A DNA stretch of 64,000 bases from positions 6,704,626 to 6,768,625 of the forward strand of contig NC_091937.1 in assembly GCF_041260155.1 (NCBI RefSeq), written 5' to 3'. Shown piece by piece: positions 1 through 48,633 of this stretch; the first letter of the stretch is position 1, and every line of letters begins with the position of its first letter. The notes under the pieces are model-generated. The model was not told the origin of the DNA, searched no databases, and saw only the letters and a program-made list of their open reading frames with translations. Both the position numbers and the translations under genes were made by a program. The DNA comes from Ptychodera flava. Its lineage: Eukaryota.

Positions 1-299
1 CAACAAAAGTTCAACTTAATAAATGAATACTGTGTAAACTTCGGGAAAGCGACATAGAAGGCACAAATATCGACAAGCAACGATAAATTTCCTTCATCAC
101 ACAAATACTATTCCGTTGTTTCTCGATCGTAATCAAGCCTAAGCTGTCGAACTGTAGTGTAAACTCTGCAGTGCAGCGCTGTAGAATCTGATGCATTTCG
201 AAAGTTGACTCGGACAACACTCACAACAGAACAGAGTTCCCGTCAAGTAACAAAATTGGGAAGTACCTACGGGCGATATATGTGTCACAGCAAATATCA

Positions 300-700
300 A
301 AGTCCATATGACGAAAACATTGACGACTGAGATGGCCACCGGCGGACGCGCAGTGCATGCCAACTGTACAAGCGTACATTGTGTGTGTACTGTGTCATCG
401 ATCTGAAACTTTCGGGCTCGCCAAGGCCGTAAACTTGTGATATTTTAAAAGCCACAGCATCTGTAAGAGTGATAACTACTGTTTCGATCGTGCCGTTGCA
501 TTCGCTTTATAAATATAATTCTAAATATTCTAAATAACTCAAAATACTATCGTTATCTTTCGCAAGCGCGGTGAAGGCTATGTCCGCCGATGGCAGACTT
601 GCCTTGGCATCGCTCCAGCACGAGACAATGATTGACACGCGCACGTGACCGAATCCGTATGTCTGATTGGTGGAGATACCATTCCATGTATCAAATTTTT
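300..700. promoter_or_regulatory. CpG-rich island in AT-rich context with a TATA-like TATAAATA (508-515), E-box CACGTG (642-647) and inverted CCAAT ATTGG (666-670). It may be a promoter, possibly bidirectional.
   Basis: Local CpG density (e.g. ccggcggacgcgcagtgcatgcc, cgcaagcgcggtgaaggc) is much higher than in flanking DNA. The motifs were read directly. No coding support. Confidence 0.25.
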
Positions 701-789
701 AACTTAATGGGATTTATGAATGAAAGTATACCTGTAAACATTTGTACATCTCCTGGATGACGGACCGCTTTACTCATTAAATGTACCCG
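700..789 (+). other. Candidate non-coding 5' exon ending at a consensus donor (cccg|GTAAGT at 790-795)
   Basis: Perfect GTAAGT donor downstream of the CpG-rich region. The frame that would join to the 2978 exon has a stop (TAA 735-737) and no ATG, so if it is real it is UTR. Confidence 0.15.
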
Positions 790-910
790 GTAAGTAATCC
801 GCGTAAATAAAACACAAAATCGCGATAAACATCATGCAGTTTGTTACAATAATTTTGATCCATCCACATCAAAGAAAAATAAGAAGACTGTTCATGTGAT
901 AAATATATAA

Positions 911-1204
<294 letters not shown>

Positions 1205-1668
1205 CATGCTACCATGCGCCATTCTGATTGGACGAGAGCTCATTCCAGCGATGCTAAAATATTGTTTTAGCACTGATAGCGGTGGTAAAACGGGCCCCTA
1301 AACAAGCATTTTCGAAAATTGCCCAGTCGGTGCATTCGAACGTACACCTGTCTAAACCGTAGACCCTCGAGAAAAACCGAAACAGTCCGCTTTGTTTCAA
1401 AGACGGAAGACCGAATTTTGATACACAGGTAAAGTGTGGGTCTGTAACTCACCTCTTGGTGAAAATAAGCTTGGATCGATGATGAAAGACATCTCTGAAG
1501 CAGCACATTTGGGTGTGATGTACACAATATTATTAGAGCGAGAGCGCACCTTGCACTTTGCTTGATATTGCGGGAGTCGAAACGCGATATATCCTACCGC
1601 TCTTTAAAATAGCGCTAGTATTCATTCGTTCATACACTAATAAATTGACACTTCCTCACAGTAATGGT

Positions 1669-1893
1669 ATGTCAGATAATCTTTACCAAAATTTGGGCTG
1701 TAACAGACCGGGGTGTCCTAACGATGTACCGGTAGACCAAGAAGTTCAAAATAACGATGGGATGACTCCTGGCGACTGCGACGAAATTTCACATAAATGC
1801 AACGAGCAGTGTCAGCGTCCAGCTATCGCTGCATCGGGCAACACACTCTGCAGAACTGCTCATCACAGTTGCAGTCATCGCAAGTCTGGATGA
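1669..1893 (+). CDS. Hypothetical small cysteine-rich ORF (MSDNLYQNLGCNRPGCPNDVPVDQEVQNNDGMTPGDCDEISHKCNEQCQRPAIAASGNTLCRTAHHSCSHRKSG, 75 aa)
   Basis: Open frame with locally raised GC and codon-like composition (CCG GGG TGT CCT AAC GAT GTA CCG). It follows a possible acceptor (ctcacag at 1657-1663). I recognise no family. Confidence 0.15.
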   Translation: MSDNLYQNLGCNRPGCPNDVPVDQEVQNNDGMTPGDCDEISHKCNEQCQRPAIAASGNTLCRTAHHSCSHRKSG

Positions 1894-2395
1894 TTTCAAA
1901 ACTGCTTGTTTTCTGGTACAATTAACGTCCAAATTATCCATCAAATATTGATCCTGTAACCTCACATGCACTGTACCACCTCTGAATGTCGCAACGGCCG
2001 TATACGTGTATGCTGTACAGAATGAGACAAATCTATTTTTAGTATGCCAAAAGTCAGGACAATTATTCTTATGTCAATTTACGAAAAAAATGTTACTTTT
2101 TCTTTTGATTTGAACTCTTGACCCGTTTTCTGTGTCTGCAGCAGGTATTTTTGTATAGTGTTCATGTTCGTGTTGCATGCGAATAAAATGCAATGTTGAT
2201 AAACGTAATTCGTATTTATCGTAGGATACGGTGTGCGTGTACGTAATCCCAACTTATAAAAATGCTCGGTCTCGGGCGCAGAATTTCCGACGTTCGATTT
2301 CTCAGACGTCCGTTTTCTGCATTTCGGGCTCAAAGTGATGAAATTACCCAAGTATGACAACAAAGACACACATACTGATATAAAATAATAGCAAT

Positions 2396-2525
2396 AACCC
2401 CCTCCACAGTCGAGTATCCACTCGATTTTGGTACAATACGCTCCATATAGCACTCGCCTATCGGCTCGTGCTTTATGTCGCGCATTGTACCAAAATCTCG
2501 TGTATACCCTCCTGCGGCGGGGGTT
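2396..2525. repeat. Imperfect inverted repeat (arms ~60 bp: aaccccctccacag...ggtacaatacgc / gcgcattgtacc...ctgcggcgggggtt)
   Basis: The arms are also visible as mirrored ORF-track peptides MLYGAYCTKIEWILDCGGGYC (-) and MLYVAHCTKISCIPSCGGGYC (+). Confidence 0.7.
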
Positions 2526-2531
2526 ATTGCT

Positions 2532-2535
<4 letters not shown>

Positions 2536-2623
<88 letters not shown>

Positions 2624-2650
2624 CCTTTCTTTCTTCTTTCTTTCTTATTC
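2536..2650. repeat. Compound microsatellite: (TA)n, then poly(T) ~25, then (TTTC)n
   Basis: Direct read. Confidence 0.95.
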
Positions 2651-2977
2651 TTCAAAAAATATGTTAAAATACAAGCTTTTTTTTAACCTTCGTATTGTTA
2701 CCAAAGTCATTCTTATCTAGACTAAATATTAGTTGTCAACATTAACATCGGATATAATGTACAGGTAGACTGTGCCAACAACTTGTACGCAAGACACTTG
2801 GGCATATTTTGAGACAATAACAAGAAGCTATTTTATCAACAGATCAAAAATACTGCTCAGGGTTATATGTATCAAAGATCATAGCTGATGATGCTTTTAA
2901 TAACACAAGCTATGATATTGCATATCAAGTAGTAGATATACGATATTGATAATATTGATGATATGGATTGTTTTCAG

Positions 2978-3048
2978 CAGATATTGGGTCGGGAAAGGCC
3001 AGATCTTCAGGTATATTACGAAGATTCGGATCAAGGCTATCAGATACA
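2978..3048 (+). CDS. Internal coding exon (..ADIGSGKARSSGILRRFGSRLSDT) of the large low-complexity-protein gene. Acceptor ttttcag|, donor |GTAAGT at 3049.
   Basis: Consensus splice sites. The ORF-track frame ends in phase 0, compatible with the 8063 exon. All three frames are open, so the frame is assumed and this is the least certain exon. Confidence 0.35.
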
Positions 3049-4359
3049 GTAAGTAATTTCATCAGTTCAATATATGCCATATTTGCCTTTCCAAAATTCT
3101 GCATTCACCGTTTTGATTTTGGAGCAATGAAAGTACTTTTCATGTTTTGATTTTGACTTTTTACAATGTACAAGCTTTTGTTAATGTTTACTAAAAATGC
3201 AAGGGAAAACTGAACAAATGACTCAGAGATGTCTTTAATTGTCTTTTCAAGGAAAAAAGGTTTTTTAATTTTTCTGGTTGACATAACACAAAGATTAGTG
3301 GCCACAATCTCTGTGTGAATTCTATGGGGAAAATTTGAATTAAAAATATGTGTTGGGCAAATACGAGACACTGAAACTTCACTTACTTCAAGAGCTTCAA
3401 AGTGAGGCCTTACAAGTGGTGGACCAGAAAAGTTTTATAAAATGTTGAGAGTCCAAGTATCTGTCACCAAAATGCACTCCTACACTACCATTAACTCTTT
3501 TGTAAGCCCTTTGAATGATGCTACAGCACGATGTCATTGAAAACTTCTGACCTCACTGTGGCAACAGCTGAGCACTGTACTTCTAGAAGCACTGCTTATC
3601 TAATGCTTTATGGAGGGAATATCATGTATATCCAGTGCTGGCTAAAACAGCACCAATTCTAGCTATCTGAAATAGCTTTTGTCTTGTGCTGGAGGTTGGG
3701 GGCAAACTACATGGTATTGAAATGCATTTTGGGTAAAAATCGTTAGCAAGAGTTTTAGATAGTGATCTCATAAATTCTTTGAACACAAATGTGTATCGTT
3801 TTAATGGCAAAAAGTTTGGGTTTTTTGTGGAACCACTAAACTCATTTACCTTGTCATCTTTTTAGGCATTACTGGCATTAAATTTCTGTATAACCTTAAA
3901 CATAACATTTGTAATGTGTGTTTTATGTGTAGAAATCTGCCAAATTTGGCCAATTGCCTGAGACTTGTATGACCCACCTTGGTGGGAAAATTATATTTAG
4001 TTACCGAGAATTGAAGGGCACTTTTTGTAAAGCAGCAGCATAATTGATTCACTTTGATGTATTCCTCCTAGGCTGTCATATTGATCAAACATACTTCAAA
4101 CCTAGGTCCCTCATAAGGGACCATGTTAAAATATTGCATACAGTTGCAAAATTGCAAGCTGAATGTCGATCTGCATGTATAATGATTGTATATACCATCA
4201 TTGGATAGGGTTTGGTGATTTTGTAAACACCAATGCCAAAAAGACTCTGCTGTCTGTAAATATTGAAATAAACTTGGTGAAACAATCAGTAATTGGCCAA
4301 TTATTACTCATGAATATTTATAACCTTCACAAACAGTGTGCGAAATTTAGAGAAAATAG

Positions 4360-4450
4360 CTTCAGGTCATAAGGACCTGCACCGAGCCAAAGCTTCTGGT
4401 CCTCACAGAAAACTGCCGGTCCTCAATGAGGGCACTTGTTAACGACCATT
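4360..4450. repeat. Short dispersed repeat (ggtcataaggac...ccggtcctcaatgag...) with a second copy at 6430-6520
   Basis: Shared blocks ggtcataaggac and cggtcctcaa(t/c)gag read in both places, ~70% identity. Confidence 0.35.
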
Positions 4451-7400
4451 AAAGTCAACTTCTCCACCAATACTATGCTTTCGAATGTTGTAATATTTAA
4501 TTTTCATGTCCTTTTATCAATAGAGTCAGCAAGTATTCACTCCAAAAGACTATTGTTCACATAGATTGCAGAATAGTGTAAGTGAATGATCATGAAATAT
4601 TCATCTACATGATCTGGAATCTGAAAAAGATCACAGTCCTCATCTTCCTCACTGTCATGCACACACATTTATCAATGTTTTCCACCATTTGGGGGACTAT
4701 GGGACTAACAGGAGAATTTGACATTTTTTCTAGCCATGTCAAATCCCCCACTCTCGGACTATAAAATGATGTCAAACACCCAGGGGCCAGGGAATACAGG
4801 CTCATGCACTGGCTACATGTGGCTGATGAAAGCGATAAAGTTTGTCTCTCATGACTGTCTATGGGGAATGGTACGTGTTCTCTACATTGCTGTGTACAAT
4901 TGTACACCACACCAGGGTATGTGATATTGTGATTTGAAAATGGTTGGCGAGCTGAAAATCACTTCTGAAATTTGCCAACGCAAGTGGTAGAAGAGTGCGT
5001 GAATAACTTAGTACCCTGAAAACAGTCATGAGTAAGGGGAGTGTATGAATAAATTTTTTATGCAAACATTGATCACTACAACTTTTTTCTTAATGGAAAA
5101 CAGAAGGAAGAAAATACTTGGTATGGCTTTTGATATGACGTATGGATTACTTTCAAAATTTTTCAAAAAATAAATATGCTTAAATGTGGCCTCTGTTGCA
5201 TTCATGAAGAAACAGATGAAGTTATACTTTTAATTAAAAGGACAAGTATCGTAACTTTTTTCGATTATAAAAATTGCAGACAACATGAATGGCACACGTC
5301 ACCACTTGTGGAAATGAATGCATATTTTCTGATTGAAAAGTTTTGACTGAGCGATTGCTGGGTCTCATCCCCCTTTGAAAGCGTAAAGTTATTAAAATGA
5401 CTCTGAAAAGTTTGACAGACACTCGATACTGCTGAAAACCATCGACACGATCAGTTAATGATACCGTAAAATCTTAAAAGACGTAATTTTTTGCGACATT
5501 TAGGCCTACAGTCCAGGATGACACTGAGTTTTGCCTGTCTGTCGTAAAACGGTATACATCGAAACAATTTGAAGCCCTACTCTCAACCTCTGAGAGTATA
5601 CACGACGGATCGTGCAACTCGACAAAACTGTTAATGATAAGGCCGCTCTGTTTTATAAAATGTACACTTGTTATCACGATATATCATGGTAACAGTCGGT
5701 CTTGTGGACTTTGGTTGAAGACCAACGAATGCAAGCAAGATATTCTAGCGGTCCACAAACAAACGCAGCGAAACGTGAACTTGACTGTCGACTGGCAGGT
5801 AGCACAATTGGGCTGTCGTGTAACATCTAGTCCTTGTATCTGGCGTAGTTCAAAACGATAGAGGTAAAAAAATACCTCCATATTCAAAACCAAATATGTT
5901 TAGCCAACAGCACTGATCTCGTAGTAGGTTTTTGTCTTAAACTCTTCATTGAACCGTTTATGTTTTGAACTCTTCAATGGAATTTACTATGTACATTTGT
6001 GTACACGTAAATTCCGAACACTTAAAGTGTGGAACTAGTGAAGTGATACTGGGTGTTGTTACCATATGACACAGATATGCTAACATTACCAGGGTTACAC
6101 TCACTAGACGATTGTATCACATTGTTGCACCAAAATCAATCCATTCCATTGCTAGAATCTGCATGCACGGACGTAATTCATACTGATCTGAATGCAATTA
6201 GCTGCACCGTGCTATGCGCGTCGATCGGAGGGATTAGTGGCGTACCATAGAGATCGAATTCCCCACCACCAGGATACGAAGTGCGATCAATATCCCTGTT
6301 GCCCCGCACTCCCACGGTGGAAAACATTGATAGGTGCATGACATTCAAGTCTGAATCACATAATTCAGAGTCAGTCATCATCTGCATCTGTTCAGATCTT
6401 GACGGAGAAATTTTTATCATTTATTCCAAATTTCAGTCGGTCATAAGGACTGACATGTTGCTAAAAACTTTCGGCTCAACGAGAAATCTGTCGGTCTCGG
6501 ACCGTCGGACCAACGTTAATTTTGCACACTGTTCACAAATCCCATGGTTTCCTGTCTCCTGGTAGCTGGGAACCTGCCCCAAACAGTGGGAAATAATTAT
6601 CCAAAAGAAAGTAAACCATATTGCATGCTACTATTGCTACATTGCAAAGCATCCTTTGAATGACAACCATTTAGGTAGCTGTGTCTTTTTTCTCCAGCAA
6701 CAGCAACAGTCTTTTTGTGTTCCTGAGAATGCTAAATGCATAATACTTTGCTTACCAAGTCTTTGCATTTCAGACGTCATCAATCTCTATCTATCTCCAT
6801 TCATTCCTCTATCAGTAGACCAAATTTGTGGAGTTGATGAATTGTTAATCACCAATCCAAGTCTTAGAAGTTTATGTATATGGATGTGTACATGGTCATC
6901 TAGAACTGAATAAAGTCTTGTAGATTTGACTTTTTGCAAATAAAAATTTTTAATAATAATTATGCTTTTCCCTTATTAATGCACTGAAATTTCCCAATAA
7001 CGATTGCTTCAGTTTCGTTGCCACTTGTTTTTACAGATGGCCTGTTTCACATTTGTTAAACCTATTTATTTTCTGATGGTGTTTGTCCATTCATTTCAAA
7101 TTTGATTTCCTCTTTTGCTCTGGGGAATTACAGCGCCATGCAGATATATCAAAATGGTGATGAAATTTGTAAATATGTAAAATTTTTGAGCCAATTTTCT
7201 CGTAGTCCATCATAACATTTCCTACCACGTAGCCATGTACCTGACTGCTTTCAACTTTGGCTCGTAGGTTTATTACCTAATTCAGATTTGTTCAAATGAT
7301 GATGGAAATGTGTGTAACAAACTCCTTGTGTCTCATTCTATATCTTACTGGAAACGACATTTTACAAACCACTCAAATGAAAGCTTTCAATCATTTTTCA

Positions 7401-7557
7401 TCTCTTTTTGTAAGCAAACTCTTCATATTTGTCAAAAATCACATGTTTTGACTATGATTCAAGTGATAGCATTCTGCTTAGTATTGAGGTTCCTATGAAT
7501 GAGCTCATCAAGTTAACTTATACTTTCAATTGAATTAAGTCTTTAGGGCTGATTTTC

Positions 7558-7842
7558 TTAAAGGGACAACGTCGGCCATTTTTCATGAATTTTGTTTGAT
7601 ATGAGATACTACTTATATTGTTTGACATGTTGAAAGATACTGAATGAATTGGTGAACATGCATATATTCGACCCCGGTTTTAGACACGAAACCATCGCGA
7701 AAATGAATTAAATATCTAAAACAGGGGTCAAATACATGCATGTTCACCAATTCAATCAGTATCTTTCAACATGTCAAACAATATAAGTAGTATCTCATAT
7801 CAATCAAAATTCATGAAAAATGACTGACTTTGTCCCTTTAAA
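7558..7842. mobile_element. MITE-1 copy 1: a ~285-bp non-autonomous DNA transposon that is almost entirely a ~130-bp terminal inverted repeat (termini ttaaagggacaa(c/a)gtc)
   Basis: The arms are reverse complements along their whole length. Flanks are compatible with a TTAA or TA target duplication (c[ttaa]agggacaa...ttgtccct[ttaa]ac). Confidence 0.8.
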
Positions 7843-8062
7843 CATCTGATACTTCATTTATTTAAACCACCTGATAGTGTGTCATAGTAACAAACATATC
7901 ATCTTTGGTATTAAATTTGCAAGAGCACAATCTGAAAGTTTCATTTAAATTTGGAACAAAGTCCAATTATTGTATATTAATGATAGATCATTATCATTGA
8001 TATTACTGGTAATGCCATAGGTTTTCACCTTATTCTTCATTTTTTTTTCTATTCCATGATAG

Positions 8063-8162
8063 GGTATACGTGATCGTTCAGGGACCAAAAGTGACGATGA
8101 CAAGAAGAGTTCTGACATATTTCACAAGAAATCAGATGTTGGAAAGGCAATTGTGCTTGGAG
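8063..8162 (+). CDS. Coding exon (GIRDRSGTKSDDDKKSSDIFHKKSDVGKAIVLG + 1 nt)
   Basis: Polypyrimidine tract then catgatag| acceptor, and GAG|gtatgc donor. It ends in phase 1, which joins exactly to the AG-start of the next exon to make GAG. Confidence 0.5.
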
Positions 8163-8637
8163 GTATGCCAGAGCTTTCATTTGTGGTTAAAAGATTGTAT
8201 TATAATATGACCTTATACGATAAAACAAGAAAGCGTTTGTGTATACCTGTTGAAATCACCAGGAGTATAATATATATTATAACATACCACACACAAATTT
8301 TTTGCCAAGTTCATAAGAACAAGATCCATGATGAGAAAATGGATAAAGCTAGCTACACTCTAGCTCAAAATATCAACTGGATTAAATATTTCCTTTTTGC
8401 ATTCTATTAGCATATCAATTAGAAAATGTAAGTTCAAGCGAGGATGATAATTGGTGTGCCAAAGATATTTTTGGTGTCTCACCACAAAGAAATTGTTACA
8501 TCAACAACTGCTGTGGAGACCATATTACAATTATTGTACAGTGTGTGCATTTAAGGTAGTATGTGCCTCAACAGTGAGACTCCAACTTCCTCAATGAAAC
8601 TTCCAATCATTATATTACCAAATCAAGAATAAAAATC

Positions 8638-8960
8638 AGGGGTTACCGTGGAAAGTTTTGAACTATAGAAACAAATTGCCCAACATTTACCGATATTTGA
8701 AATTCAAAATGGTTGACATCCCTGTGTTAATTCTATAAGGGGGACAATAACATTTTTTGAATTTAAAAAAAACTAAGAGGGTGAAAATATTTCTCACGCC
8801 AAAAGATTTAAAATGAGCTCCAATAAATGGTAGATCACAAAAGATTTGTAAAAGTTTGAGAGCCAAAATATCAGTCCCTGAGGCACATTCTACCTGAAGC
8901 ATATCAAAAATAAAAGTCATGAACAGAGTAGGCACATGGTATGTTATAGAATACACATTT
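8638..8960 (-). repeat. Interspersed repeat family D (~300 bp, SINE or MITE-like). Further copies at 9300-9560, 10620-10880 and 49190-49470 (+), and partial copies at 10400-10495 and 11925-12035.
   Basis: Shared core ggccattttgaatttcaaatatcggtaa... plus ggggt(t/c)acc(g/a)tggaaa. ORF-track peptides at 8687-8956 (-) and 49194-49496 (+) are similar to each other. Confidence 0.6.
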
Positions 8961-9177
8961 ACCTGGTCTTTATTTTTGCCAAAGCCCTTGTATTACCCTT
9001 TGACAATGTGCATTACCAAAGACAAATTGCTCCTTTTGTTGACTGAAATAATGATGTGTTTCTTATGATGCACAGCCTGTCAGAGCACATTACGTGGTAT
9101 ATCTGTTTAAGATTTTAAGCCAATGAGGGTGCTTAATGGAATACTGAACTGTAAATAAAATGACTACCATTTTAAAG

Positions 9178-10330
9178 AGGGGATGTAGAAGAGCAGGACA
9201 GAATGCTGATTACTTTCTTTACATAAAGAAGATCTGATTTTGTGCCAACACTAACAGGAAAAGTGAATTTTTACCATCTTGATCAACCATAAGCATTTTT
9301 TCCACACAGTGAATAACAAACATAGAATAAATGAGTTTGCCAAAAATGTATCTTCATATTTAAAGTCTTGGGTTCTTTCAGGTACTAAGATTAAACTTTC
9401 CTCGTTCCCTTTCCAAATTGAGATAAAAATTCAGGGGTCACCATGGAAACTTTGCCACTAGAGAAACAAATTGCCTAAAAATTACTGATATTTGAAATTC
9501 AAAATGGGCACCTTCACTGTCTTAACTCTATGGAGAAAAAATAATTTGAGATTTTCAAAACAATGAGACAGTGGAAAATTTTACCTTACAATCTTCAAAA
9601 TAAACCTCCACAAGCTGTAGACCAAAAATGTAGCGCATTCCACTTTTAGGGAAAATAATCTTCAAAGCAAGATAATTTAGTCAAACTTGTAAAAAGAGTA
9701 TCAAAATGTGGTAATAGACATTTAATGTTCAAAAGCAAAAATGGTAGAAAGTAAATAAGATCTGAAAAAGGGATGAATGATGTGAAACACTTCAATTGGC
9801 AAGTAAAAAACAGGATAACTTTGATCTTTGAATGGAAGCTAGCTCTTTCTGTTCCAAAGTTTTGGTCGTTTGGTTTTAACCCCTAAGAACAGGTGTACAA
9901 AGCTTTTCGTGTTTAGCTTCCCTTCAAAAAATAAATTCTTTGTGAAAGAAACATTTGTAAAGTATGAATAATAAGACATTAATATTTTATTCAGCTATAG
10001 AGTCAAATATTTATCAGATTTTTGATTTAAAATCATTAATATTGGTTTTCGTTCTGTAGAGGCTGAAGAGATGTCTGATTCTTCTGAAGAGGACGAGGAA
10101 ATGGGTTTTGGTTTATTCGACGATTCACCTCCACTGCAGCCATTACGTGCTAAAACCAGAGGTATATTTTGCAAGTAGACACAATGCTTTTGATTTTTGG
10201 AAAGAGCCTCTTATAGAAAAAATTTGTTTAAGCATTCAGTGTTTTTGTCCGAAAATGACAACAAAACAAAAAAATAAAATTGATAAGATCACGCTTTCTG
10301 TTGCATAATAAGTAGACTTCATAGATCTTC
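9178..10330 (+). repeat. Copy 1 of a ~1.2-kb tandem segmental duplication (copy 2 is 10497-11740). Each copy contains a family D repeat and one acidic exon.
   Basis: gggatgtagaagagcagga(c/a)(a/g)gaatgctgattactttctttaca... restarts at 10497, and collinear similarity continues through the exon to ttgcata(a)taagtagacttcatagat. Confidence 0.8.
10060..10161 (+). CDS. Acidic exon, copy 1 (E)AEEMSDSSEEDEEMGFGLFDDSPPLQPLRAKTR. Symmetric phase 1-1.
   Basis: Acceptor ttctgtag| and donor AGAG|gtatat. It lies inside copy 1 of a ~1.2-kb tandem duplication, and its paralogue at 11451 differs only by in-frame indels. Confidence 0.6.
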
Positions 10331-10496
10331 ACAGTCTTAGTTTTTGAAAATCAAACTTTTATATTTCCCTATATTAAGTTAAACTGTCTTACTTTTTTGA
10401 AAATCAAAAAATTTATTTGTCCCCACACAGTTAAAACACGGACAGAGGCCATTTTGAATTTTAAATATCGGTTTATTTGAGGTAATTTGATTTTCT

Positions 10497-11740
10497 GGGA
10501 TGTAGAAGAGCAGGAAGGAATGCTGATTACTTTCTTTACACAAGGAAGATCAGATTTTGTGCCAATACCAACCTTAATAGGATAAGTGAATTTTTACCAT
10601 CTTTATCAACCATAAGCATTTTTACATACATTGAATGACAAACCTAGATCAAATGAGTTTGCTACAAATATATCTTCATATTTAAAGTCTTCGGGTCTTT
10701 CAGGTAGTAAGATTAAACTTCACTCATTCCCTTTCCCAATTGAGATAAAAATTCAGGGGTCACTGTGCAAACTTTGCCAGTAGAGAAACAAAGTGTCTAA
10801 AAATTACTGATATTTGAAATTCAAAATGGACACCTTCACTGTCTTAACTCTACGGGGGAAAATTAATTTTAGATTTTAAAAGCAATCAGATAGTGAAAAA
10901 TATCACTCAACAATCCAAAACAATGAGGCTGTGACAAATTTTATTCAACAATCTTCAAAATAAACCAACCTTCATACGTTGTTGACCAAAAATGTATTGC
11001 TAAAATTTGAAAGTTGGAATATCTGTCCCTGTACTATGGGCATTCCTCTTTTAGGGAAAATGAATTTCAGAGCAAGATAATTTAGTGAAACTTGAAAAAG
11101 AGTATTAAAATGTAGTAATAGATATTAAATGTTCAAAAGTAGGCATGGAATAAAGTAAATAAGATCTGAAAAAGGGATTAATGACATGAAACACTTCAGT
11201 TGGCAAGTAAAAAAAGGATAAATTTGATCTTTGAATGTAAGCTAGCTCCTTCTGTTCCAAAGTTTTGTCTGTGTGTTTTAACCCCTAAGAACTTTTCGTG
11301 TATAGTTTCCCTTAAAAAAATAAATTCCTTGTGAAAGAAACATTTGTAGAGATATGGAAAATGAGGCCTTGATATTTTATTCAGCTATAGAGTCAAAGGT
11401 TTATCAGATTTGTGATTTAAAATCATTAATATTGTTTTTTTGTTCAGTAGAGGCTGAAGAGATCTGTGATCCTTTTTTTGAAGATGATGAGGATGAAGAA
11501 GAGGAGGAAGAAATGTGTTTTGGTTTATTTGACGATTCACCTCCACTGCAGCCATTACGTACTGAAACCAGAGGTATATTTTGCAGTTAGAAACAATGCT
11601 TTTGATTTTTGGAAAGGGCCTCATATAGAAAGAAAAATTTAAGCATTCAGTGTTTTTGTCTGAAAATGGCAACAACAAAAAAATGAAATTGATAGGATCA
11701 TGCTTTTTGTTGCATATAAGTAGACTTCATAGATTCATCA
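10497..11740 (+). repeat. Copy 2 of the tandem segmental duplication
   Basis: See copy 1. The copies are ~85-90% identical by eye and are separated by a ~165-bp spacer that carries a partial family D repeat in the opposite orientation. Confidence 0.8.
11451..11573 (+). CDS. Acidic exon, copy 2 (E)AEEICDPFFEDDEDEEEEEEMCFGLFDDSPPLQPLRTETR. Symmetric phase 1-1, a tandem duplicate of 10060-10161.
   Basis: Both splice sites are conserved (ttcagtag| and AGAG|gtatat). The length differs from copy 1 by 21 nt, a multiple of 3, and the frame is conserved. Confidence 0.6.
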
Positions 11741-12288
11741 TTGTGCAAATCCTGTACCTACCATTCATCCAGTAAACAGACTAAGAGATTGTGAAAATTT
11801 AAGGAAGAATGCACATTTGGGACAGATATTTGGAGTCATAACATTTTATAATTCTTTTCTGATCTAGTGCTTGTAGGGACTCATTTTAAAGCTGTCAGAG
11901 CAAGATAAATTTTATTCAGTCTTATTTTTTTGAAAATCAAAAGTTTTATTTGTCCCCATAGACTACAATGATGGTGGCCATTTTGAATTTTAAATATCAG
12001 TAAATTTGAGGTACCGGTAATTTGATTATCTGGTACCAAAATTTGCCAAGTGACTCTTAATTTTTATTCATGACTTTGAACAAGAATGGTTAGATGTATC
12101 CTTGAGGAAAGTTTAAGCAAAGTCAAGTTAATCAATATAGAGGAGCATACTACCTTAACACTGGTGAATATTTTCCATTTTATCGCCGGCTTGCACTAAT
12201 TTGCAGAACAGAATGAGCAGAACGGAACAGAATGCAACGGATTAGCCACACTAGATAAAAAATTTGTTTCTTTCATTTCTTTTTTGTT

Positions 12289-14175
12289 AGTCCCCACGGA
12301 CACCGTCCGGGGGGACTTATAGGTTTGGTCATGTCCGTGCGTGCGTCCGTGCGTGCGTGCGTGCGTCCGTGCGTGCGTGTGTGCGTCCGTCCGTCCGTTC
12401 ACGCAGATATCTCAGAGATGCAGGAGCGATTTCATTCAAACTTGGTACAAGGATTACTTCATATGTCATACAGATGCACGTCGATTTGTTTTGTGATACG
12501 ATCCAATATGGCCGCCAGGCGGCCATTTTATTACGATTTTTTCATGTACAAAGCCATAACTCAGACATGTTTCAACCGATTTTATTCAAAGTTGGTACAA
12601 GGACATTGACCAATGTCATAGATATGCATGTCGATTTGTTTTGTGATACGATCCAATATGGCTGCCAGGCGGCCATTTTATTACGATTTTTTCATGTACA
12701 AAGCCATAACTCAGACATGTTTCAACTGAATTTATTCAAAGTTGGTACAAGGACATTGACCAATGTCATAGATATGCATGTCGATTTGTTTTGTGATACG
12801 ATCCAATATGGCTGCCAGGCGGCCATTTTATTACGATTTTTTCATGTACAAAGCACAATAACTCAGACATGTTTCAACTGAATTTATTCAAAGTTGGTAC
12901 AAGGACATTGACCAATGTCATAGATATGCACGTCACTTTGTTTTGTGATACGATCCAATATGGCTGCCAGGCGGCCATTTTATTACGATTTTTTCATGTA
13001 CAGAGCCATAAGTCAGACATGTTTCAACCGATTCAAAGTTGGTACAAGGACATTGACCACTGTAATAGATATGCATGTCAATTTGTTTTGTGATACGATC
13101 CAATATGGCTGCCGTGTGGCCATTTTGTTACAATTTTTTCATGTACAGAGCCATAACTCAAACATATCTCAACCGATTTTATTCAAAGTTGGTACAAGGA
13201 CATTGACCTATGTGATACATATGCACGTCAATTTGTTTTGTGATACAATCCAATATGGCCGCTAGGCAGCCATTTTATTATGATTTTGTCATGTACAGAG
13301 CCATAACTCAGACATGTTTCAACCGATTTTTTTCAAAGTTGTACAAGGATATTGAACAAGGATATTGACCAATGTCATAGATATGCATGTCAATTTGTTT
13401 GTGATATGATCCAATATGGCTGCCGTGTGGCCATTTTGTTACGATTTTTTCATGTACAGAGCCACAATACTCAGGCATATCTCAACCGATTTTATTCAAA
13501 GTTTGTACAATGACATTAACCTATGTCATACATATGTACGTCAATTTGTTTCATGATATGATCCAACATGGCTGCATGGCAGCCATTTTGTTACAATTTG
13601 TTCATGTCCTTTGGACACGTACGATTTTATTCACCAATTTTATTCAAACTTAGTGCAAGGACATTGACCTATGTCATACATATGCACATTGATTTGTTTT
13701 GTGATACAATCCAATATGGCCGCCGTGTGGCCATTTTTTTTCCCGATTTTTTTTCATGTCCGGAACCATAACTCAGACGTGTATCCAGCGAATTTATTCA
13801 AAGTTGGTACAAGGACATTGACTTATTTATACATATGTAATATATGTCGATTGGTTTCACGAGATGGTCCAATATGGCCACATGGTAGCAATTTTGTTAT
13901 GGTTGTTTCATGTCGAGAGCCATAACTCTGGCAAGTCTCAACTGATCCTATTCAAAGTTGGTACATGGACATTGACTTATGTAATACATATACGGTACAT
14001 GTTGATTTTTTAAACAGTAAGATCAAATATCGCTGCATGGCAGTGATTTTGTTACAATTTTCTAATGTACAGAGCCATAACTCAGACATGTTCCACAGTA
14101 TCATTCAAAGTTGGTACAAGGACATTGACCTATTTCACACATATGCTCGTCAATTTGTTTCACGTCATGTAGCAG
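12289..14175 (+). mobile_element. Satellite-bearing element A. Its terminus is AG + hairpin (tccccacggac acc gtccggggggac) + CTTAT + (GTGCGTCC)n, followed by ~11.5 tandem ~150-bp monomers.
   Basis: The terminus is homologous to the start of element B at 45209 and the monomers are homologous (~75%) to satellite-1 of element B. No matching distal terminus was found. A shared motif ggggactgtgtcatcaacgat sits at 14708 (and at 46917 in B). Confidence 0.55.
12440..14175. repeat. ~150-bp satellite array of ~11.5 units. Each monomer contains the GC-rich palindrome ATGGC(C/T)GCCAGGCGGCCAT.
   Basis: Period measured from recurring tcaaagttggtacaagg at 12588, 12738 and 12888. The ORF-track shows 50-aa periodic pseudo-peptides. 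Confidence 0.9.
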
Positions 14176-15189
14176 TAACATGTCAATTATTGAAGTTTTG
14201 TAAGTAGGCTGATATGTCAAGAAATACTGCACCAAATTTCATGAAACTTTGCACAGATGTTAAGCTCACATTGCTTTAACATTGAGAAAGACATTTATCA
14301 GTGTCATTTTAATTAATTTGTAATTGCATATGTAATGAACTTTCCTAATTAGAGTGATATAGCCACAAATTAATACAACGTCAAATTTGATGAAACTTGA
14401 TACAGATGTTGATCTCATAGTTTGTTGTAAATACTGCGTCAAACTTCATGAAATATGGTACCAGTGATAATCTATTAAGTATTAGGATTGTATGCAAAAA
14501 ATTTTTGCAACACCCTGTGATTAATTCCTAGTTGACTCATTTTATGAACTTTAGGATGGTGGCCTACATTGGTTTTATGTTTTCATCACCATGGAACTCA
14601 TTCTTGGCCATTGAGTGCCATCTGTATCAAAGTATTTTTATCACAGACCTAATTAATGAAGAGGACTCTATCCTCTCTGAGGACTTGTAATCAAAGTACC
14701 CATTAACAAGTGGGGACTGTGTCATCAACGATTTCATTTCTTTTTTGTTTTTTGTCCACTGGATTTTGGTGCTGAACAGGATTGAATTTTTGATCTAAAA
14801 TTGAAATTCGGATATAAATACAATATCATCATTTTTTCTACCCTAAAAGTAATGCATCTGTTTTCCAAAGTTTTCTGTTTTTCTCCCGTGATGAAAATCA
14901 TGAATAAGCTTAAGACTGATAAGAACTTTGTTGCATAAAACCACACTTCGGGAACCATGGTAGAACAAGTACCATGAATCAAACATTTCACATAATCAGG
15001 CAAGACTGCGGCTCCGGAGACTGCTGCTGGGAATGAATAAGACTACTGGACTGAAGCTTTAATTCAAATCTGAAACTACACCTGAATCCAAACCTTACCC
15101 TGGATATTGCATCTGATAGAGGACACCATAGCATATGAGATGGCGGGCTGTGTATCAGATATTCACCTCAATGGCATGGCGCCAGATTA

Positions 15190-15295
15190 CATTTAAATTG
15201 GCACTGAGGTGAAAAATGAGGGAAGCGGTGGTGGATTCTAACCGCTAGGTGACTGGGTACCGTACGTTATGAGTTCGAATCCTGTTGAAACCACC
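15190..15295 (+). mobile_element. tRNA-related SINE-like fragment (T-loop-like GAGTTCGAATCC, with a GGTGGTG...ACCACC pseudo-acceptor)
   Basis: Read directly. The T-stem and D-arm do not fold canonically, so this is not called a tRNA gene. Confidence 0.25.
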
Positions 15296-16085
15296 ATATT
15301 GATACATTGCCACAGCATTGCTGACTACGTGTTCATTAGTGTGGATGCAACCCCTGACTTGCGTGATGATGGGGAGTCTCACAAACAGCCAGGCAGGGCA
15401 GGGAGTGGCAGAGCTAGGTACATCCACATTAGTTGTTGCTTAGGGTCTGCAGACTAAGGGGGAGCACCATTTTATTTTGGGGGGGGGGCACTGGAGAAAA
15501 TGGAGGTGTCGACAAATTTGTTTTCACCCGTTATGGCAGCATTTTTTTTTCAAAGTATGCTCACGCAACAAATTATTTTTTTACACAGCTGAAGGCAATG
15601 CAAAGTATTTCATTTGTTCTCAAAGTGAAGTACATGTGCATATTTTTTGCATGTCAAAGTTCATTCATGCAACCTGTAATCTATAATGGTGCAGAATTTT
15701 GCACATCTGACCCCTTCCCATGTTAGAAAATGTTGAAATATGCAGAGCTCAAAGCTGCATTTTCATGAACTCAAAACTAAATTGATTTCACAATTTTTTG
15801 TTTGATTAAAAAATTTCTTATGAAATGTCTCTGCATCCATTCTTCAAATTTTAAACAGAGCAAAAGTCAGAATTACAGTATACCATAATGGAGGGGTCAA
15901 AAATAATTTCGTAATTATGAATAAACTACACAAATGTAAAGAGATAAATTGAAATATACACTTTGTAATATGATTTCCACCATAGGCAGCAGCTCAAATA
16001 CTAAAATCAGTTCTAAACATGCATTTTTAGCTCACATTTGGTTATACCAATGTGAGTTTATCGTATAAGCTGAAGTCGATGGCGT

Positions 16086-16127
16086 CTGTATGTATGTGTG
16101 TATGTATGTATGTATGTATGTACGTAT
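16086..16127. repeat. (TGTATGTA)n microsatellite
   Basis: Direct read. Confidence 0.9.
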
Positions 16128-16399
16128 AGTATGTCCGTCAACATCAAAAACACGCAAACCGCTGCACGTTTCAGCTTGGTATTTGGTGTGTGGATGCATC
16201 CTGGGCTATAGATGGGATTTTGTTCAAATGAAGTCTGCATTGCCAAATTATGCAAATGAGCTTACAAAATGTGAAAATGGTCAAGAATTAATATCTCGAG
16301 AACCGCTGTTTTGATTGCTTTGAAAATTTGTGTGCAAGTACCTTAGGTGAACCTTATACAGTTTTATGAATATTGTGAAGATATCCTTAATTTTGTATT

Positions 16400-16900
16400 T
16401 TTACTGAATTTTTTGGTGATTTTTCTCATTTTCATTAAAAATTATTCTTCTCTGAAACCGCCAGCCCAATCGCTCTCAAATTTGGGTTGGATCTTTGCAA
16501 GGGTGTTACTCTTCTAATTTGTTGAAATTATGACAAAATTGGGAAAATTACTATTTTGGAGCAATTTTGTCATTTTTGGTTGAAAACTCTTAAACAGTAT
16601 TTTCTTTTTAAAGCTCCTGAACAGACAGCTTTTATATTTGGTACACAGACGTACAGAGATGACGATAGTTAGATATGTGGAAATTGTCCTGAAATATACA
16701 AATTTGTATTTTTAAGACAATATTGTCATTTTTGGTCAAGAAAACTTGTTCTCAAAATTACTTGTGTGATAGCTTTGTAATTTGGTATAAAGTCCCGAGG
16801 GATGTTATTAGATAAATTTTCTGCTCAAGTGTTGGGAAATTTGTATATTTTAGGTAATTTTCTCAGTTTCTGATCTTAAATGACCCACACCAACCCAGGA
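16400..16900 (-). repeat. Two to three units of the satellite-2 family (the same family as 47290-48620) in reverse orientation
   Basis: The reverse complement of 16670-16730 (ttgaccaaaaatgacaatattgtcttaaaaatacaaatttgtatatttcaggacaat) matches 48181-48245 (ttgaccaaaaatggcaaaaattgccttaaaaatgtaaatttgcatatttctgcacaat). Confidence 0.6.
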
Positions 16901-18658
16901 TATGTTGTGAGACAGTTTTGAAGGCTGTGAACATAATTTTGTCTTTGGTATCAATTTGTAGGAAAATTTGAACCAGAAAACAAAGCTGAGGTGACTTTTT
17001 CATTGCAGACCAATTTTTGCAACTTATCTATGTAAGACATACAAGAACTGATGAGAAATTTGGATCCAGGATAATTCCAGGTGTTGTAATCACCGCCCAC
17101 AGTGGAAGGCATTTCACCATCTGTAACTAACTTAAGTGCTGTTTACATTAGAATGATAACACTCACATTGTATTTACAACCACAAGGTTATAATTCATTT
17201 CCTGTCATCTGGTGTTATGTAATACCAAGGAATGGAACATTTGATATTCAGGAGGGGTAGGGTCTAGAGGATTGATGAGGTAGCATTACTTTTTTTACCA
17301 GATCCTCTTGTACATTTTTTTACCCACTCCCACCTTTTCTTTTCATCAAACCTTCTCTGTCTATTTTTTGTTGTTGATATTTGTCTATGTATGTAGGATC
17401 TGCTTGTCCCATTGCTATAGAAGTTGATATGCATGTTCCTAAAGATGACCTCAGTACCTAAGTTGGAGACCTTATTTGCTTTTGTCATTCTTGTTTTTCC
17501 TGGTTTAAATATTCTCGAATGGACCAATTCAAACTGAATGTGAGCACACTGTCCTTGACGGTATTTTTGGTATTTCCAGCACCCCACATCACATTTTTTT
17601 AACCTTCATCTCTGGGAAGCAGTAACATTTTTTTTCTCACTTTGGGGTTTTGCTGCAAATTATTTTTTATTCTCCAAGGGAGGCGGACAGTTTTCCACAC
17701 AATCCTACAGCCCCTACCTCAGAAGTCAAATGTTTCTCCCCTCAGCATGCTCAGTAAAAAAAGGGGGGCTCAAATCAACCTATTGATTGGCCAATCAACA
17801 AGGTCAAAGGACATCACTTGTACACACATACAAAAGGACATCACACATACACAGTCGACAGACGATCAGTGCAGTAACTTGAAACCATACGGTCGTTTTG
17901 CAATTTTAGCCATTCTTTTGTGATCAGTTTCTTAAGACAGGATGTGTTTACACCCCTAATTTTGTTGTATGCCGTACATATGCAATTTTTGTTTGAAAAC
18001 TAAGTTGAGCTATTGCGATCGTACAAAACAGAGTGCATAATTACATATTGGCCATAGACACGCCCACTGTGGTAGTGCCCTCTATTAGGCACAATTCTCA
18101 GGGTAAGATTTAAATTCAGATGTAGCAGTTACAGCTCTGAAGTTACAGCTGTTAAGGTGCCTCCCTTGTAGAGTTGGATAGTTTATTTAAATCCAAATTT
18201 CTGTTTCAGATCTGAAATTCCATTCTGTTCTGCTCCAAAATCCAGTGGGCTAAAAAACATGGACTCTTAATAATAAGAAACTTATTTTTTATCTGGTGTG
18301 GCTATTCCGTTCCTGGCCACAAATTAGTGTAAGCCCTTGTCGCCACCATTCACTCTGAGATTGTCAATTGTTTTTGTCGCTCAGTTTCTGTCAGTGGACA
18401 GCTATGCAGATCCTAACCATACTTACATTGTATGACCAAAGAATTGAGAGATGGCCTCCCAGTCTAAGATCACTATTCCATCGGGCCTGTAGTAGCATAA
18501 GACTACAGGTCCTAAAGCATTGGCTGGATGATTTGCTTATTACTGGTTTAGTCACAGTGAATCTCTACACAGGGAAATCGGGAAACAGTTAAAAGTTTGA
18601 AGACTCATCAGATGCATTTATGACAATTTATACATAAGCTTATTTTATTCTATTGCAG

Positions 18659-19827
18659 GGATAATGGAAGAGAAAAGCAAAGGTATGCTATCAGAAGTGT
18701 CAACAATGTCAGCTTCTATAGCTGGAGAGGCATTGAAACCAAGAAGGGCACTAGGAATGGCACCATCAACAGAATCTCTGGCAAAGACAAAAAAACCACC
18801 TCCAGTAGCACATCCAGCAGGTATGCCACCGCCCCCACCACCACCGCCACCACCTAGACCAGTAAGTGGTGCACCAGTGCCACCACTAGGAACAGGGGCA
18901 CCAGTACCACCTGCAGCGGCACCTCCACTAGGCATGCCACCACCACCACCACCACCTCCAGCAACATATGCTCTACCAGTGCCACCACCACCAGGGGCAT
19001 CAGTACCTCCTCCAGTGGCACATTCAGCAGGCATGCCACCACCACCACCTCCATCAGTAAGTGGTGCACCAGTGCCACTGCCATCAGGAAGAGGAGCACA
19101 AGTACCAATAGCAGCAGGATTTCCACAAGAAATGCCACTACATGAACGACTACAATCAATACCATGTCGATCAGCATATGCTAAACCAGTGCCACCACCA
19201 CCATCAGGAAGTGTTGGGCCATTGCCACTTCACCAGTCTCAACAAAGATTAATGAGAGGCGGAATACCACAAGCACGTCGAAAATTATCAGTTGAAATGG
19301 TATATCCAGCAACCATACTGCCACCAGTACCACCACCATCATCATCATCACAAAGAAAATATGCTGCACCGTCACCCCCACCTCTTCCAAAGGCACGAAT
19401 TCAAGCCCAGTCAGGCAAGCCATCATCACCACCTCCAGCTAGAGCAGAACTTCAAAAATCTTTGCCACTACAAGGACCACCTTCGGTAAAACGAACACCA
19501 CCACCACCACCACAACAACAACAACAAGAACAACAACAACAACGGGCACAACCAGCTATACCAATACAGCCAGCACAGGTATTATCTAGGGGAGTACAAC
19601 CAGCTGTATCCCAGCCTTTGCTCCATAAGGCAACTGCAGAATCAGAAGCACCAAGAATGAGAAGTGCAGTAAAGATTGGTGCAGCCATGCCTGAATGGGA
19701 AGAAGAAATACCATTGCAGATGGAAATTCCAATGAAGGCTGTGGAAGGGGCTTTTGATGCAAAATTACAACTGCAAACGTTGAGACAAGGAGATTCAATT
19801 GTATATATAGGAGTACCAAAGACAAAG
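18659..19827 (+). CDS. Large proline-rich exon (389 codons) resembling a formin FH1 or WASP-family polyproline region: repeated GMPPPPPPPPPP / GAPVPP blocks and a polyQ (QQQQQEQQQQ)
   Basis: Acceptor ttctattgcag|. The exon starts with GG, which completes the phase-1 codon from the acidic exons as GGG. There is an uninterrupted 1169-nt frame and an AAG|gtaaaa donor ending in phase 0. Confidence 0.7.
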
Positions 19828-23661: not shown

Positions 23662-25727
23662 GAAGTGGAAGACAAGAGTGCATCAAGATTGCAGACACAG
23701 AGTCAAAGTTACCGTGGAATAGTCAGAGGAAGTAGCTTTGGAGATATTGCTGCATCAGAGTCACAGAAACAACAAAAGCCATTCACATTTGTGCAAGAGA
23801 AGGCAACAGTTGCCGACAGTGGCGTACCAACACACCGTATCCTCAAGGACGCTTCAAAAGCTGTGGAAGCTGATTTGTCAACAACTGATTCAAAACAAAG
23901 TTTTGGCTTTGCTTCATCAGTACAGCCAACAACAAAGTTTGGAGGAACAGTTGGTTTTGGTGCTTCATCAGTGCAAACAACAGTAAAGCTTGGAGGACCT
24001 GGTGGCTCTGCTGCAGCGGAAAAACCCACAGCAATGTTTGGAGGAACCGATGGCTTTGGTACTGCTGCTGCAGCTACTGCAGCTGCTAAAGCGCAACCCA
24101 CAGCAATGTTTGGAGGAACCGATGGCTTTGGTACTGCTGCTGCAGCTACTGCAGCTGCTAAAGCGCAACCCGCAGCAATGTTTGGAGGAACTGGTGGCTT
24201 TGGTACTGCTACTGCAGCTACTATCGCGCAACCTGCAGCAATGTTTGGCGGAATGGGTGGTTTTAGTACTGCTACTGCAGCTACTACAGGGCAACCCACA
24301 GCAATGTTTGGAGGAACTGGTGGCTTTGGTACTGCTACCGCAGCTATGACAGCGCAACCCGCAGCAATGTTTGGAGGAACTGGTGGCTTTGGTACTGCTA
24401 CTGCAGCTACTACAGCGCAACCCACAGCAATGTTTGGAGGAACTGGTGGCTTTGGTACTGCTACTGCAGCTACTACAGCGCAACCCACAGCAATGTTTGG
24501 AGGAACTGGTGGCTTTGGTACTGCTACTGCAGCTACTACAGCGCAACCCACAGCAATGTTTGGAGGAACTGGTGGCTTTGGTACTGCTACTGCAGGTACT
24601 ACAGTGCAATCCACAGCAATGTTTGGAGGAACTGGTAGCTTTGGTACTGCTACTGCAGGGCAACAAGCAGCAATGTTTGGCGGAATGGGTGGTTTTAGTA
24701 CTGCTCCTGCAGGGCAACAGACAGCAACATTTGGAGGAACTGGTGGTTTTGGTACTGCTACTGCAGCTACCACAGACCAACCCACAGCAAAATTTGGAGG
24801 AACTGCAGGCTCTGCTGTTTCAGTGCAACCAACATTTAGTTTTTTAGGAACTAGTATGCTTAACAGATTCAAGTCAACTCCGCAACCTGGGGGCGTTATC
24901 GCAAGTACGCAAGACCAGGCTGATGGTTTTATTAGAAGTTTATTTGACACTTCACAAGAAGAAAAATCTTCACCAAAATATGGTTTTTTTGGCTCTCAAC
25001 AAGTCAAAGCAAGTTCATCAGATCAGAAACCATACCTATCTGGCCAATCTAAAGACTTGGAAATTTCATCTGCAGACACATCTGGGTTATTTGACTCTCC
25101 ATTAGTTGAAGCCATCTCATCTGCTCATCAATGGCAAGGAAAAGGTGGAAGCGCTCCCAGTCAAGATAGTTTTATGCTTCTTCCAGGTTTCAATTACTCA
25201 ACTGCAGAGCCTGGTAAAAAAGTGGCTGGATTGAGCTCTGATTCAACTGGTCAAGACATGGGTTGGAGTTACACCAGTTCTAGCATGAACAGGACGAAAA
25301 GGTGACAGGGTCGACATTTAGTTCACAGAGTCAAGAATCAAAGAGAAAAGAAACTGATTCAGGTGTCTTTGGATCAAGTCAAGACCAAAGTGGGACAGGG
25401 TCGACATTTAGTTTTGGTTCACAGAGTCAAGAATCAAAGAGAATAGAACCTGATTCTGGTTTCTTTTTCTCAAGTCAATATCAAAGTGTGAGCTCTTCAT
25501 ATGGTTTAGGTTCATCAACTCAGAGCATGACAGAATACAAACTTGAGCAAGAAGTCCCTAAATATGAAGACAAATCTAGCACACTTTCAATGCAAGATGT
25601 GCTTTGCTATGATGTGAGACTTGATGAAGCACTGGACATTGAAGACTCAAAGCAAAATGAGAGACACATTAGAGAAACCTTGACACCACCACCATGTAGT
25701 GTATCGCCTATAACACTTCCTACAATG
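23662..25727 (+). CDS. FG-repeat exon. It has ~14 tandem 21-aa units (TAMFGGTGGFGTATAATTAQP), then an S/T-rich tail with GSTFSFGSQSQESKR repeats. A +1 frame break near 25284-25305 separates frame 1 (stop at 25303-25305) from frame 2.
   Basis: Acceptor cctggacag| in phase 0, continuous with the 19827 donor, and donor ATG|gtatgt at 25728 in phase 0 relative to frame 2. The exon length is not a multiple of 3, so the exon as it stands carries a +1 frameshift (or an unseen intron). Confidence 0.55.
23990..24800 (+). repeat. Coding 63-bp tandem repeat (~13 units, very homogeneous) that encodes the FG repeats
   Basis: ggaggaactggtggctttggtactgctactgcagctactacagcgcaacccacagcaatgttt repeats nearly exactly. 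Confidence 0.9.
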
Positions 25728-27203: not shown

Positions 27204-27591
27204 AAAAAGAAGAAAAAGAAGGGTTATGGTGTTGCATATATGGCTGCAGATTTTACAACAGATCAGAAGGCAGAAGAAGAAAAAAAGAAGCCACAAGTTG
27301 TTCCTTGTGTTGTTACCTCTCCAGTTAGCTGGCGTAAAGAACCGGAAATCAAAATTGATCGAATTGAAGGAGGAAAAGACGTTAAAATGAGACGTTCGTG
27401 GGGTGCTCAAGATGAGGAAGTCCTCGGTGATGATTGGGATGATGTAGATGGAGACTTTTGGTCACCTTCTACCACAGAAGATAAAGACATCACTGAACCC
27501 TTATTAGATATCAGCCCTGCAGAGCTAGATGTTGAATATTGGCTGAGTGAAGACTATGATAAGGCAACTGTATATGACCTACCTCCACAAG
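27204..27591 (+). CDS. Exon encoding a basic then acidic segment (KKKKKGYGVAYMAADFTTDQKAEEEKKKPQVV...WRKEPEIKIDRIEGGKDVKMRRSWGAQDEEVLGDDWDDVDGDFWSPSTTEDKD...)
   Basis: Acceptor cctgtatag| in phase 0, matching the 25727 donor. Donor CAAG|gtattg ends in phase 1. Confidence 0.65.
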
Positions 27592-28125: not shown

Positions 28126-28244
28126 AAGACTTGATTTATGGGACAGGAGACAGGCTTGGAGATTTACAGCACAAGGAAACAGTTCCCACTACTCTACCCA
28201 ATATCACAAGGCCTGAATTCAGATCAAAGGAAGAAGACAAACCA
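28126..28244 (+). CDS. Exon (E)DLIYGTGDRLGDLQHKETVPTTLPNITRPEFRSKEEDKP
   Basis: Acceptor ctgaaatag|, donor CCA|GTAAGT. Phase 1 in, phase 0 out, consistent with both neighbours. Confidence 0.7.
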
Positions 28245-48620: not shown

Positions 48621-48633
48621 GAAGGCAATTGTT

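Follow-up and report, generated by a model that had tools for sequence, protein, structure and literature searches.

The 64,000-nucleotide stretch of AT-rich eukaryotic DNA analysed here (the window; NC_091937.1, positions 6,704,626 to 6,768,625 of the forward strand, RefSeq assembly GCF_041260155.1) comes from the hemichordate Ptychodera flava and carries a gene whose product is XP_070567729.1 in RefSeq, a protein of 1077 amino acids named "nuclear pore complex protein Nup214-like". A small exon of this gene lies in an intron segment that is duplicated head to tail, and the exon encodes a peptide resembling the C-terminal tail of the ribosomal stalk proteins P0, P1 and P2. We favour a tandem exon duplication of an ordinary kind in a disordered protein that is specific to its lineage, with copy 1 used, copy 2 silent or rarely included, and the peptide acting as a docking motif; we give this reading a probability of about 0.68.

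The duplicated unit sits in a 10.5-kb intron between the coding exons at 8063-8162 and 18659-19827, and its two copies are as follows.

9180-10496, forward strand: copy 1 of the duplicated unit (1317 bp), with an internal D-family repeat, exon C1 and a truncated terminal inverted D repeat.
10497-12033, forward strand: copy 2 of the duplicated unit (1537 bp), with its parts in the same order as in copy 1, plus insertions.

A global MAFFT alignment placed the joint between 10496 and 10497. When each half was compared with the window by blastn, 9180-10326 paired with 10497-11734, and a repeat search returned 15 collinear direct blocks with identities of 78-92% and a spacing of 1317-1412 nt. In the MAFFT alignment, homology picks up again past an insertion specific to copy 2 and reaches 10496 and 12033. 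Relative to copy 1, copy 2 has extra insertions of 38, 41, 21 and ~180 nt and lacks 13 nt. The tandem duplication proposed in the initial annotation is thus borne out by blastn, the repeat blocks and the alignment. It had also been called recent, which the data do not support: the aligned blocks of the two units are ~89-91% identical, with a Kimura two-parameter (K2P) distance of ~0.10-0.12, and an intron divergence of ~11% is not obviously recent.

Each unit holds one copy of the exon, C1 or C2, between the flanking exons to which it can be spliced.

8063-8162, forward strand: upstream coding exon, encoding GIRDRSGTKSDDDKKSSDIFHKKSDVGKAIVLG, with the phase-1 donor GGAG/GTATGC.
10060-10161, forward strand: exon C1, 102 nt, phase 1-1, encoding (E)AEEMSDSSEEDEEMGFGLFDDSPPLQPLRAKTR; coding exon of XP_070567729.1, residues 107-140.
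11451-11573, forward strand: exon-like copy C2, 123 nt, phase 1-1, encoding (E)AEEICDPFFEDDEDEEEEEEMCFGLFDDSPPLQPLRTETR; open reading frame (ORF) and AG/GT intact; outside the RefSeq model.
18659-19827, forward strand: downstream coding exon, Pro-rich, 389 codons, with a phase-1 acceptor; splice target common to C1, C2 and the skipping product.

The C1 peptide runs from xAEEM to RAKTR and the C2 peptide from xAEEIC to RTETR. A pyrimidine tract and TAG stand before each exon, and the donor after it, AGAG/GTATAT, is identical in both. Two codon-completing bases stand at the start of each and one extra base at the end, giving phase 1 to phase 1, and all four ways of joining 8063-8162 to 18659-19827 (through copy 1, copy 2, both or neither) remain open and in frame. 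Two intact, frame-symmetric exons of 102 and 123 nt had been predicted from the sequence, and this prediction holds. As read from the sequence, the splice sites of C1 and C2 are weak (a TAG acceptor and a donor lacking +4A/+5G) compared with the strong acceptor at 18659. Tandem NAGNAG acceptors were seen before C2 (CAGTAG, 11445-11450) and before the coding exon at 2981-3048 (CAGCAG, 2975-2980); use of the upstream CAG at C2 would add one in-frame Val.

The annotated protein contains copy 1 only. By tblastn, XP_070567729.1 maps to exons at 2981-3048, 8063-8162, 10060-10161, 18659-19827 and 23662-25305, while residues 1-50 lie upstream of the window. It splices 8162 to 10060 and 10161 to 18659, and reads ...AIVLG-E-AEEMSD...RAKTR-G-IMEEK across these joins. 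An exhaustive phmmer search with the spliced model (1.84 billion representatives) found one 99%-identical protein, XP_070567729.1 itself; 19 other matches align only with its Thr/Ala/Gly-rich repeat region, and the two that were inspected are unrelated repeat proteins. XP_070567729.1 is the sole member of its 90% cluster and carries no "isoform" label, and products with copy 2 only, with both copies or with neither were absent from a collection of 15 billion proteins. Exact look-ups of the window ORFs and of the XP_070567729.1 sequence gave no match. Word-index protein searches also gave no match, missing even the 99%-identical RefSeq protein, and with such low-complexity queries these negatives carry no weight. 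In the favoured reading, copy 1 is the exon used by the gene.

The divergence of copy 2 looks neutral. The initial annotation had taken the length difference between the exons as in-frame indels that point to coding constraint. However, the difference is one 21-nt block within a GAA/GAT/GAG ((GAN)n) tract, and triplet slippage in such a tract gives an in-frame indel without selection. At 90.2%, the identity of the two copies within the exon matches that in the introns (88.9% upstream of it, 90.7% downstream). The 33 aligned exon codons differ by 8 nonsynonymous and 2 synonymous changes, and the ratio of nonsynonymous to synonymous substitution rates (dN/dS) is 1.04. In neutral simulations with 6-12% change per site, the ORF, the AG and the GT survived in 58-35% of trials, and therefore an exon that is intact and in frame is no evidence of constraint. 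Copy 2 has diverged at the rate of the surrounding intron, and it is most likely a silent or rarely included pseudo-exon that is just not yet disabled.

Several points weigh against this account. A core of 14 residues, FGLFDDSPPLQPLR, is identical in C1 and C2, with 1 synonymous change in 42 nt. Conservation of this degree was found in only 1.4% of intronic 42-column windows, all of them inside a repeat; the within-exon scan statistic for the core gives P = 0.26. The identical core may hint that copy 2 is still under selection. The frame of copy 2 is also still open, its acceptor and donor are both retained, and its pyrimidine tract is, if anything, an improvement on that of copy 1. Furthermore, XP_070567729.1 is a computational model, and the absence of isoforms from the protein collection is weak evidence that they do not exist. 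Finally, the match of the peptide to the stalk tail, described below, is far beyond chance, and "coincidental resemblance" is no full account of its origin.

Some of these points would fit a reading in which both copies are functional alternative exons, mutually exclusive or co-included, whose isoforms differ in the flank of the motif. We consider this rather unlikely. As in known alternative tandem exons, C1 and C2 are neighbouring paralogous exons of equal phase with intact splice sites within one intron, which is the arrangement that marks mutually exclusive tandem exons. Regulated cassette exons typically have weak splice sites and purine-rich bodies, as C1 and C2 do. Both are intact and every splice combination is in frame, but intactness is expected in 35-58% of neutral histories. 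Their core is identical and their differences are clustered in the flanks, but dN/dS is 1.04 and conservation in the exon does not exceed that in the intron. The inverted D repeats around each exon could give competing RNA structures (predicted, -91 to -120 kcal/mol). Unlike in the known cases, neither frame nor intron length would enforce exclusivity: the lengths of 102 and 123 nt are multiples of 3 and give no frame clash, and the intervening intron of 1289 nt is not too short. Inverted D repeats might do so by pairing, which is a prediction only. The overall pattern of divergence is neutral-looking, and the copy-1 product alone is annotated, its alternatives being absent from the protein collection. 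If both exons were used, copy 1 would supply a phosphorylatable SDSS and copy 2 a longer, constitutively acidic, serine-free run with a DPF tripeptide.

The host had been described as a non-ribosomal, disordered protein, and XP_070567729.1 fits this description as a low-complexity protein in which no domain was recognised. A Pfam search of the whole protein (E<=10) gave no family, and a PDB search (E<=1) gave no sequence. Pfam scans of the large ORFs and of concatenated open stretches (1-8100 and ~27200-32100) found no domain, and a Nucleoporin_FG match on the downstream ORF was sub-threshold (E 0.15). Ala makes up 13% of the protein, Gly and Pro 12% each, Ser 10% and Thr 9% (together ~55%), and the protein holds 30 FG, 11 GFG and 11 MFGG. 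Nup214 is defined by an N-terminal seven-bladed beta-propeller, a central coiled-coil and a C-terminal FG-repeat region. XP_070567729.1 shares the last of these, having a long low-complexity region with its 30 FG in Thr/Ala-rich spacers and 63-nt coding tandem repeats at 24145-24805, but it lacks the beta-propeller and the coiled-coil in the Pfam and PDB searches, and its N-terminal 140 residues come from short charged exons. A further likeness to FG nucleoporins is that Nup98-type repeats, too, contain GLFG-like hydrophobic cores. The protein differs from them in having a formin-like polyproline exon and an acidic flank, which is unusual for FG repeats. Since Pfam and PDB matches are lacking and the protein is rich in Ala, Gly, Pro, Ser and Thr with 30 FG, "Nup214-like" is a composition-driven name.

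Within the two exons, the segments that resemble the stalk tail are the following.

10074-10124, forward strand: P-stalk-like segment of C1, SDSSEEDEE (Ser/acidic, the serines having D/E at +3) followed by MGFGLFDD (10101-10124).
11513-11536, forward strand: counterpart in C2, MCFGLFDD (Gly to Cys), after a longer serine-free acidic run, EDDEDEEEEEE.

The tail of P0/P1/P2 (uL10, P1, P2) ends in ...EESDDDMGFGLFD-COOH. The stalk-like stretch of copy 1, SSEEDEEMGFGLFD, contains the conserved acidic run, here of Ser, Asp and Glu, and an identical MGFGLFD. In copy 2, Cys stands where the stalk tail has its first Gly, and all three serines are lost. The close P-stalk match claimed initially is borne out for copy 1. 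A phmmer search of the exon peptide against all PDB sequences gave 15 matches, all to P0/P1/P2 and aligned to the last residue, with E-values that are weak (0.3-6) because the match is short. From composition, MGFGLFD is expected 2e-6 times in XP_070567729.1 and 0.01 times per proteome; together with at least five acidic residues among the preceding six, the expectation falls to ~1e-6 per proteome. Because the heptamer with its acidic run is so rarely expected, chance does not account for the likeness, and capture or convergence remain.

The surroundings of the motif are not those of a stalk protein. Stalk proteins have an N-terminal dimerisation domain (P1/P2) or an rRNA-binding domain (uL10), plus an Ala/Gly/Pro hinge, while the host has neither such a domain nor the hinge. 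Here the motif lies within the chain, at about residues 120-127 of 1077, and continues into DSPPLQPLR, whereas the stalk tail stands at the extreme C-terminus. An origin as a processed fragment of a P-protein gene was rejected as the simple explanation, as there is no in-frame stalk hinge upstream and no stop after ...LFD. A third motif, SGLFDSPLVEA, was seen in the FG-repeat exon (25084-25095); it has no acidic run and resembles the GLFDDSPPLQ of C1 and C2, which suggests a GLFD-SP-L motif specific to this protein. We regard the stalk-tail match as real at the sequence level and as a product of convergence or old capture. The peptide (Ser/acidic run, MGFGLFDD, SPPLQPLR) would most likely be a short acidic-hydrophobic docking motif in a disordered FG-type protein.

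A bolder reading takes the peptide as a working mimic of the P-stalk tail, that is, an internal CK2-phosphorylatable acidic-MGFGLFD that would occupy the grooves bound by the stalk tail on translational GTPases (eEF2, eEF1A), Gcn2 or ribosome-inactivating proteins. All 15 PDB matches of the exon peptide are P0/P1/P2 C-termini, and the heptamer with its acidic run is expected by chance only ~1e-6 times per proteome. The stalk tail is the docking site for trichosanthin and ricin A, and Shiga-like toxin A1 docks on it through the acidic cluster, FGLF and the last five residues (PMC3280276); these binding residues are present in both copies. On EF-2, the tail sits in a hydrophobic groove as a short helix (PMC5887453), a mode that may not require a free C-terminus. 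It is also constitutively phosphorylated and interacts with Gcn2 (PMC11624264), and the copy 1 serines have D/E at +3. On the other side, the resemblance comes from sequence in a single species, and the motif is internal, while all known functional instances form the very C-terminus of their proteins. Between the paralogous exons, conservation is shifted C-terminally (FGLFDDSPPLQPLR), and the most stalk-like parts, Met-Gly and Ser, have diverged. The third GLFD-SP-L motif, without an acidic run, suggests a protein-specific motif instead, and among the papers found by literature search, none reports GFGLF(D) for a nucleoporin or another protein outside the ribosome. Taking these points together, a working stalk mimic is improbable, and so is the role that would follow from it, a decoy or recruiting site on an FG-type protein.

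The combination of both ideas would be a disordered FG-type, possibly pore-associated protein whose working internal stalk tail docks translational GTPases or Gcn2 off the ribosome, in two splice-selectable versions, one with SDSSEEDEE, where the charge would depend on phosphorylation, and one with EDDEDEEEEEE, a constitutive, hard-wired phosphomimic. We give it little credence. Least credible is an assembly artefact in which two haplotypes were set in tandem: although the P. flava genome is described as highly heterozygous (PMC11175523), the copies are ~11% apart and differ by five indels of 13 to ~180 nt, the 21-nt indel of the exon included, which we judge far beyond allelic divergence, N runs are absent, the junction is precise, and the 3'-terminal D repeat of copy 1 is cut off exactly there. 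RNA-seq data from 16 developmental stages and Iso-seq data have been generated for P. flava (PMC11175523).

We return to the favoured tandem duplication and its origin. A 1.3-kb intron segment that carried a single small symmetric (phase 1-1) exon gave rise to two units in head-to-tail order. The initial annotation had attributed this to unequal exchange between flanking D-family repeats, of which the nearby copies are listed here.

8594-8796, forward strand: D-family repeat upstream of the unit (found by blastn).
9410-9589, forward strand: D-family repeat inside copy 1, paralogous to 10712-10909 (forward strand) in copy 2.
10383-10498, reverse strand: 3'-terminal D-family repeat of copy 1, cut short by the duplication junction; a fuller paralogue lies at 11907-12067 (reverse strand).

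Of the two breakpoints, the left one (9180) falls in unique sequence and the right one (12033) 34 nt into a D copy of inverted orientation. The nearest D copy upstream is 384 bp off and inverted relative to the one at the right breakpoint. The junction reads ...TTTTCTGG/GATGTAG, the left flank ...AAAGAG/GGGATGTAG and the right flank ...TTATCTGG/TACCAA, and the junction CTGG/GATG has only GG in common with the flanks. Non-allelic homologous recombination between D repeats was rejected, as it would call for a direct repeat at each ancestral breakpoint and a junction that falls within a repeat copy, and the breakpoints do not show this anatomy. Because one end is unique, the other is in a dispersed repeat and only GG is shared, we infer that the duplication probably arose through microhomology or replication slippage.

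D repeats in inverted orientation bracket each exon copy, with predicted RNA duplexes of -91, -106 and -120 kcal/mol (z of -12 to -16 against shuffles). Alu-type inverted repeats around exons promote exon skipping or circular RNA. As in those cases, opposite D copies stand on either side of each exon copy and their predicted pairing is strong, so that pairing could loop out either or both exons as skipping or circular RNA; the present case differs in being a prediction only and in its very small exons (102-123 nt).

Two further coding exons of the gene lie in the window.

2981-3048, forward strand: coding exon for residues 51-73 of XP_070567729.1, with a CAGCAG tandem acceptor.
23662-25305, forward strand: FG-repeat coding exon with 63-nt tandem repeats; the RefSeq stop codon TGA is at 25303-25305.

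An older exon duplication was also seen. Residues 19-50, RKFARTKADDDKKSSDVFHKKSDVEEAIVLG, encoded upstream of the window, are ~72% identical to the peptide of exon 8063-8162, and both are annotated. Counting the C1/C2 duplication, the N-terminal region has thus undergone exon duplication at least twice. Tandem repeats are found within coding sequence as well: ~99-nt units in the polyproline exon (18841-19107), and in the FG exon ~11 copies of 63-nt units with 85% matches (24023-24805), which encode AATTAQPTAMFGGTGGFGTAT. At the 3' end, a candidate GT-AG intron at 25214-25308 (95 nt, phase 1) leads to a 139-codon open frame at 25309-25727 that is Ser/Gly/Phe-rich and FG-like. Phase-matched exons follow after 25727, at 27204-27591 (Trp/acidic, with DDWDDVDGDFW and EYWLSEDYD) and 28126-28244 (donor CCA/GTAAGT). 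The annotated XP_070567729.1 may thus be truncated at its 3' end.

Elsewhere in the window, at 12336-14160 and 45246-46277, tetranucleotide microsatellites ((CGTG/CGTC)n; (CCGT)n = (ACGG)n) abut 6-11 copies of a ~150-bp unit. An architecture of a microsatellite and ~150-bp repeats has been described for the pearl/DTC84 elements of bivalves and a sea urchin (PMC3879986), and a similar modular arrangement is found here in a hemichordate. A further array of ~146-bp tandem repeats lies at 47551-48624 (5 plus 2 copies, 82-89% matches). The ORF at 43652-44020 (reverse strand) matches zf-RVT below the threshold (22 bits, cut-off 27.5; E 2.5e-4) and is probably a decayed remnant of a retrotransposon of the kind without long terminal repeats (non-LTR). 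Rfam and tRNA scans of the window gave no match.

That tandem duplication of exons can give rise to new alternative exons is textbook knowledge; Kondrashov and Koonin in 2001 and Letunic, Copley and Bork in 2002 reportedly described it as a source of alternative and mutually exclusive exons. The present case alone adds little to it. To our knowledge, and in the papers and solved structures searched, every known example of the acidic-MGFGLFD tail is in a ribosomal stalk protein. There, elongation factors, Gcn2 and toxins such as ricin all dock on this tail. If an internal stalk tail were truly present in an unrelated disordered protein, it would test whether the tail needs a free C-terminus, and whether cells titrate or relocate translation factors with mimics of the stalk.

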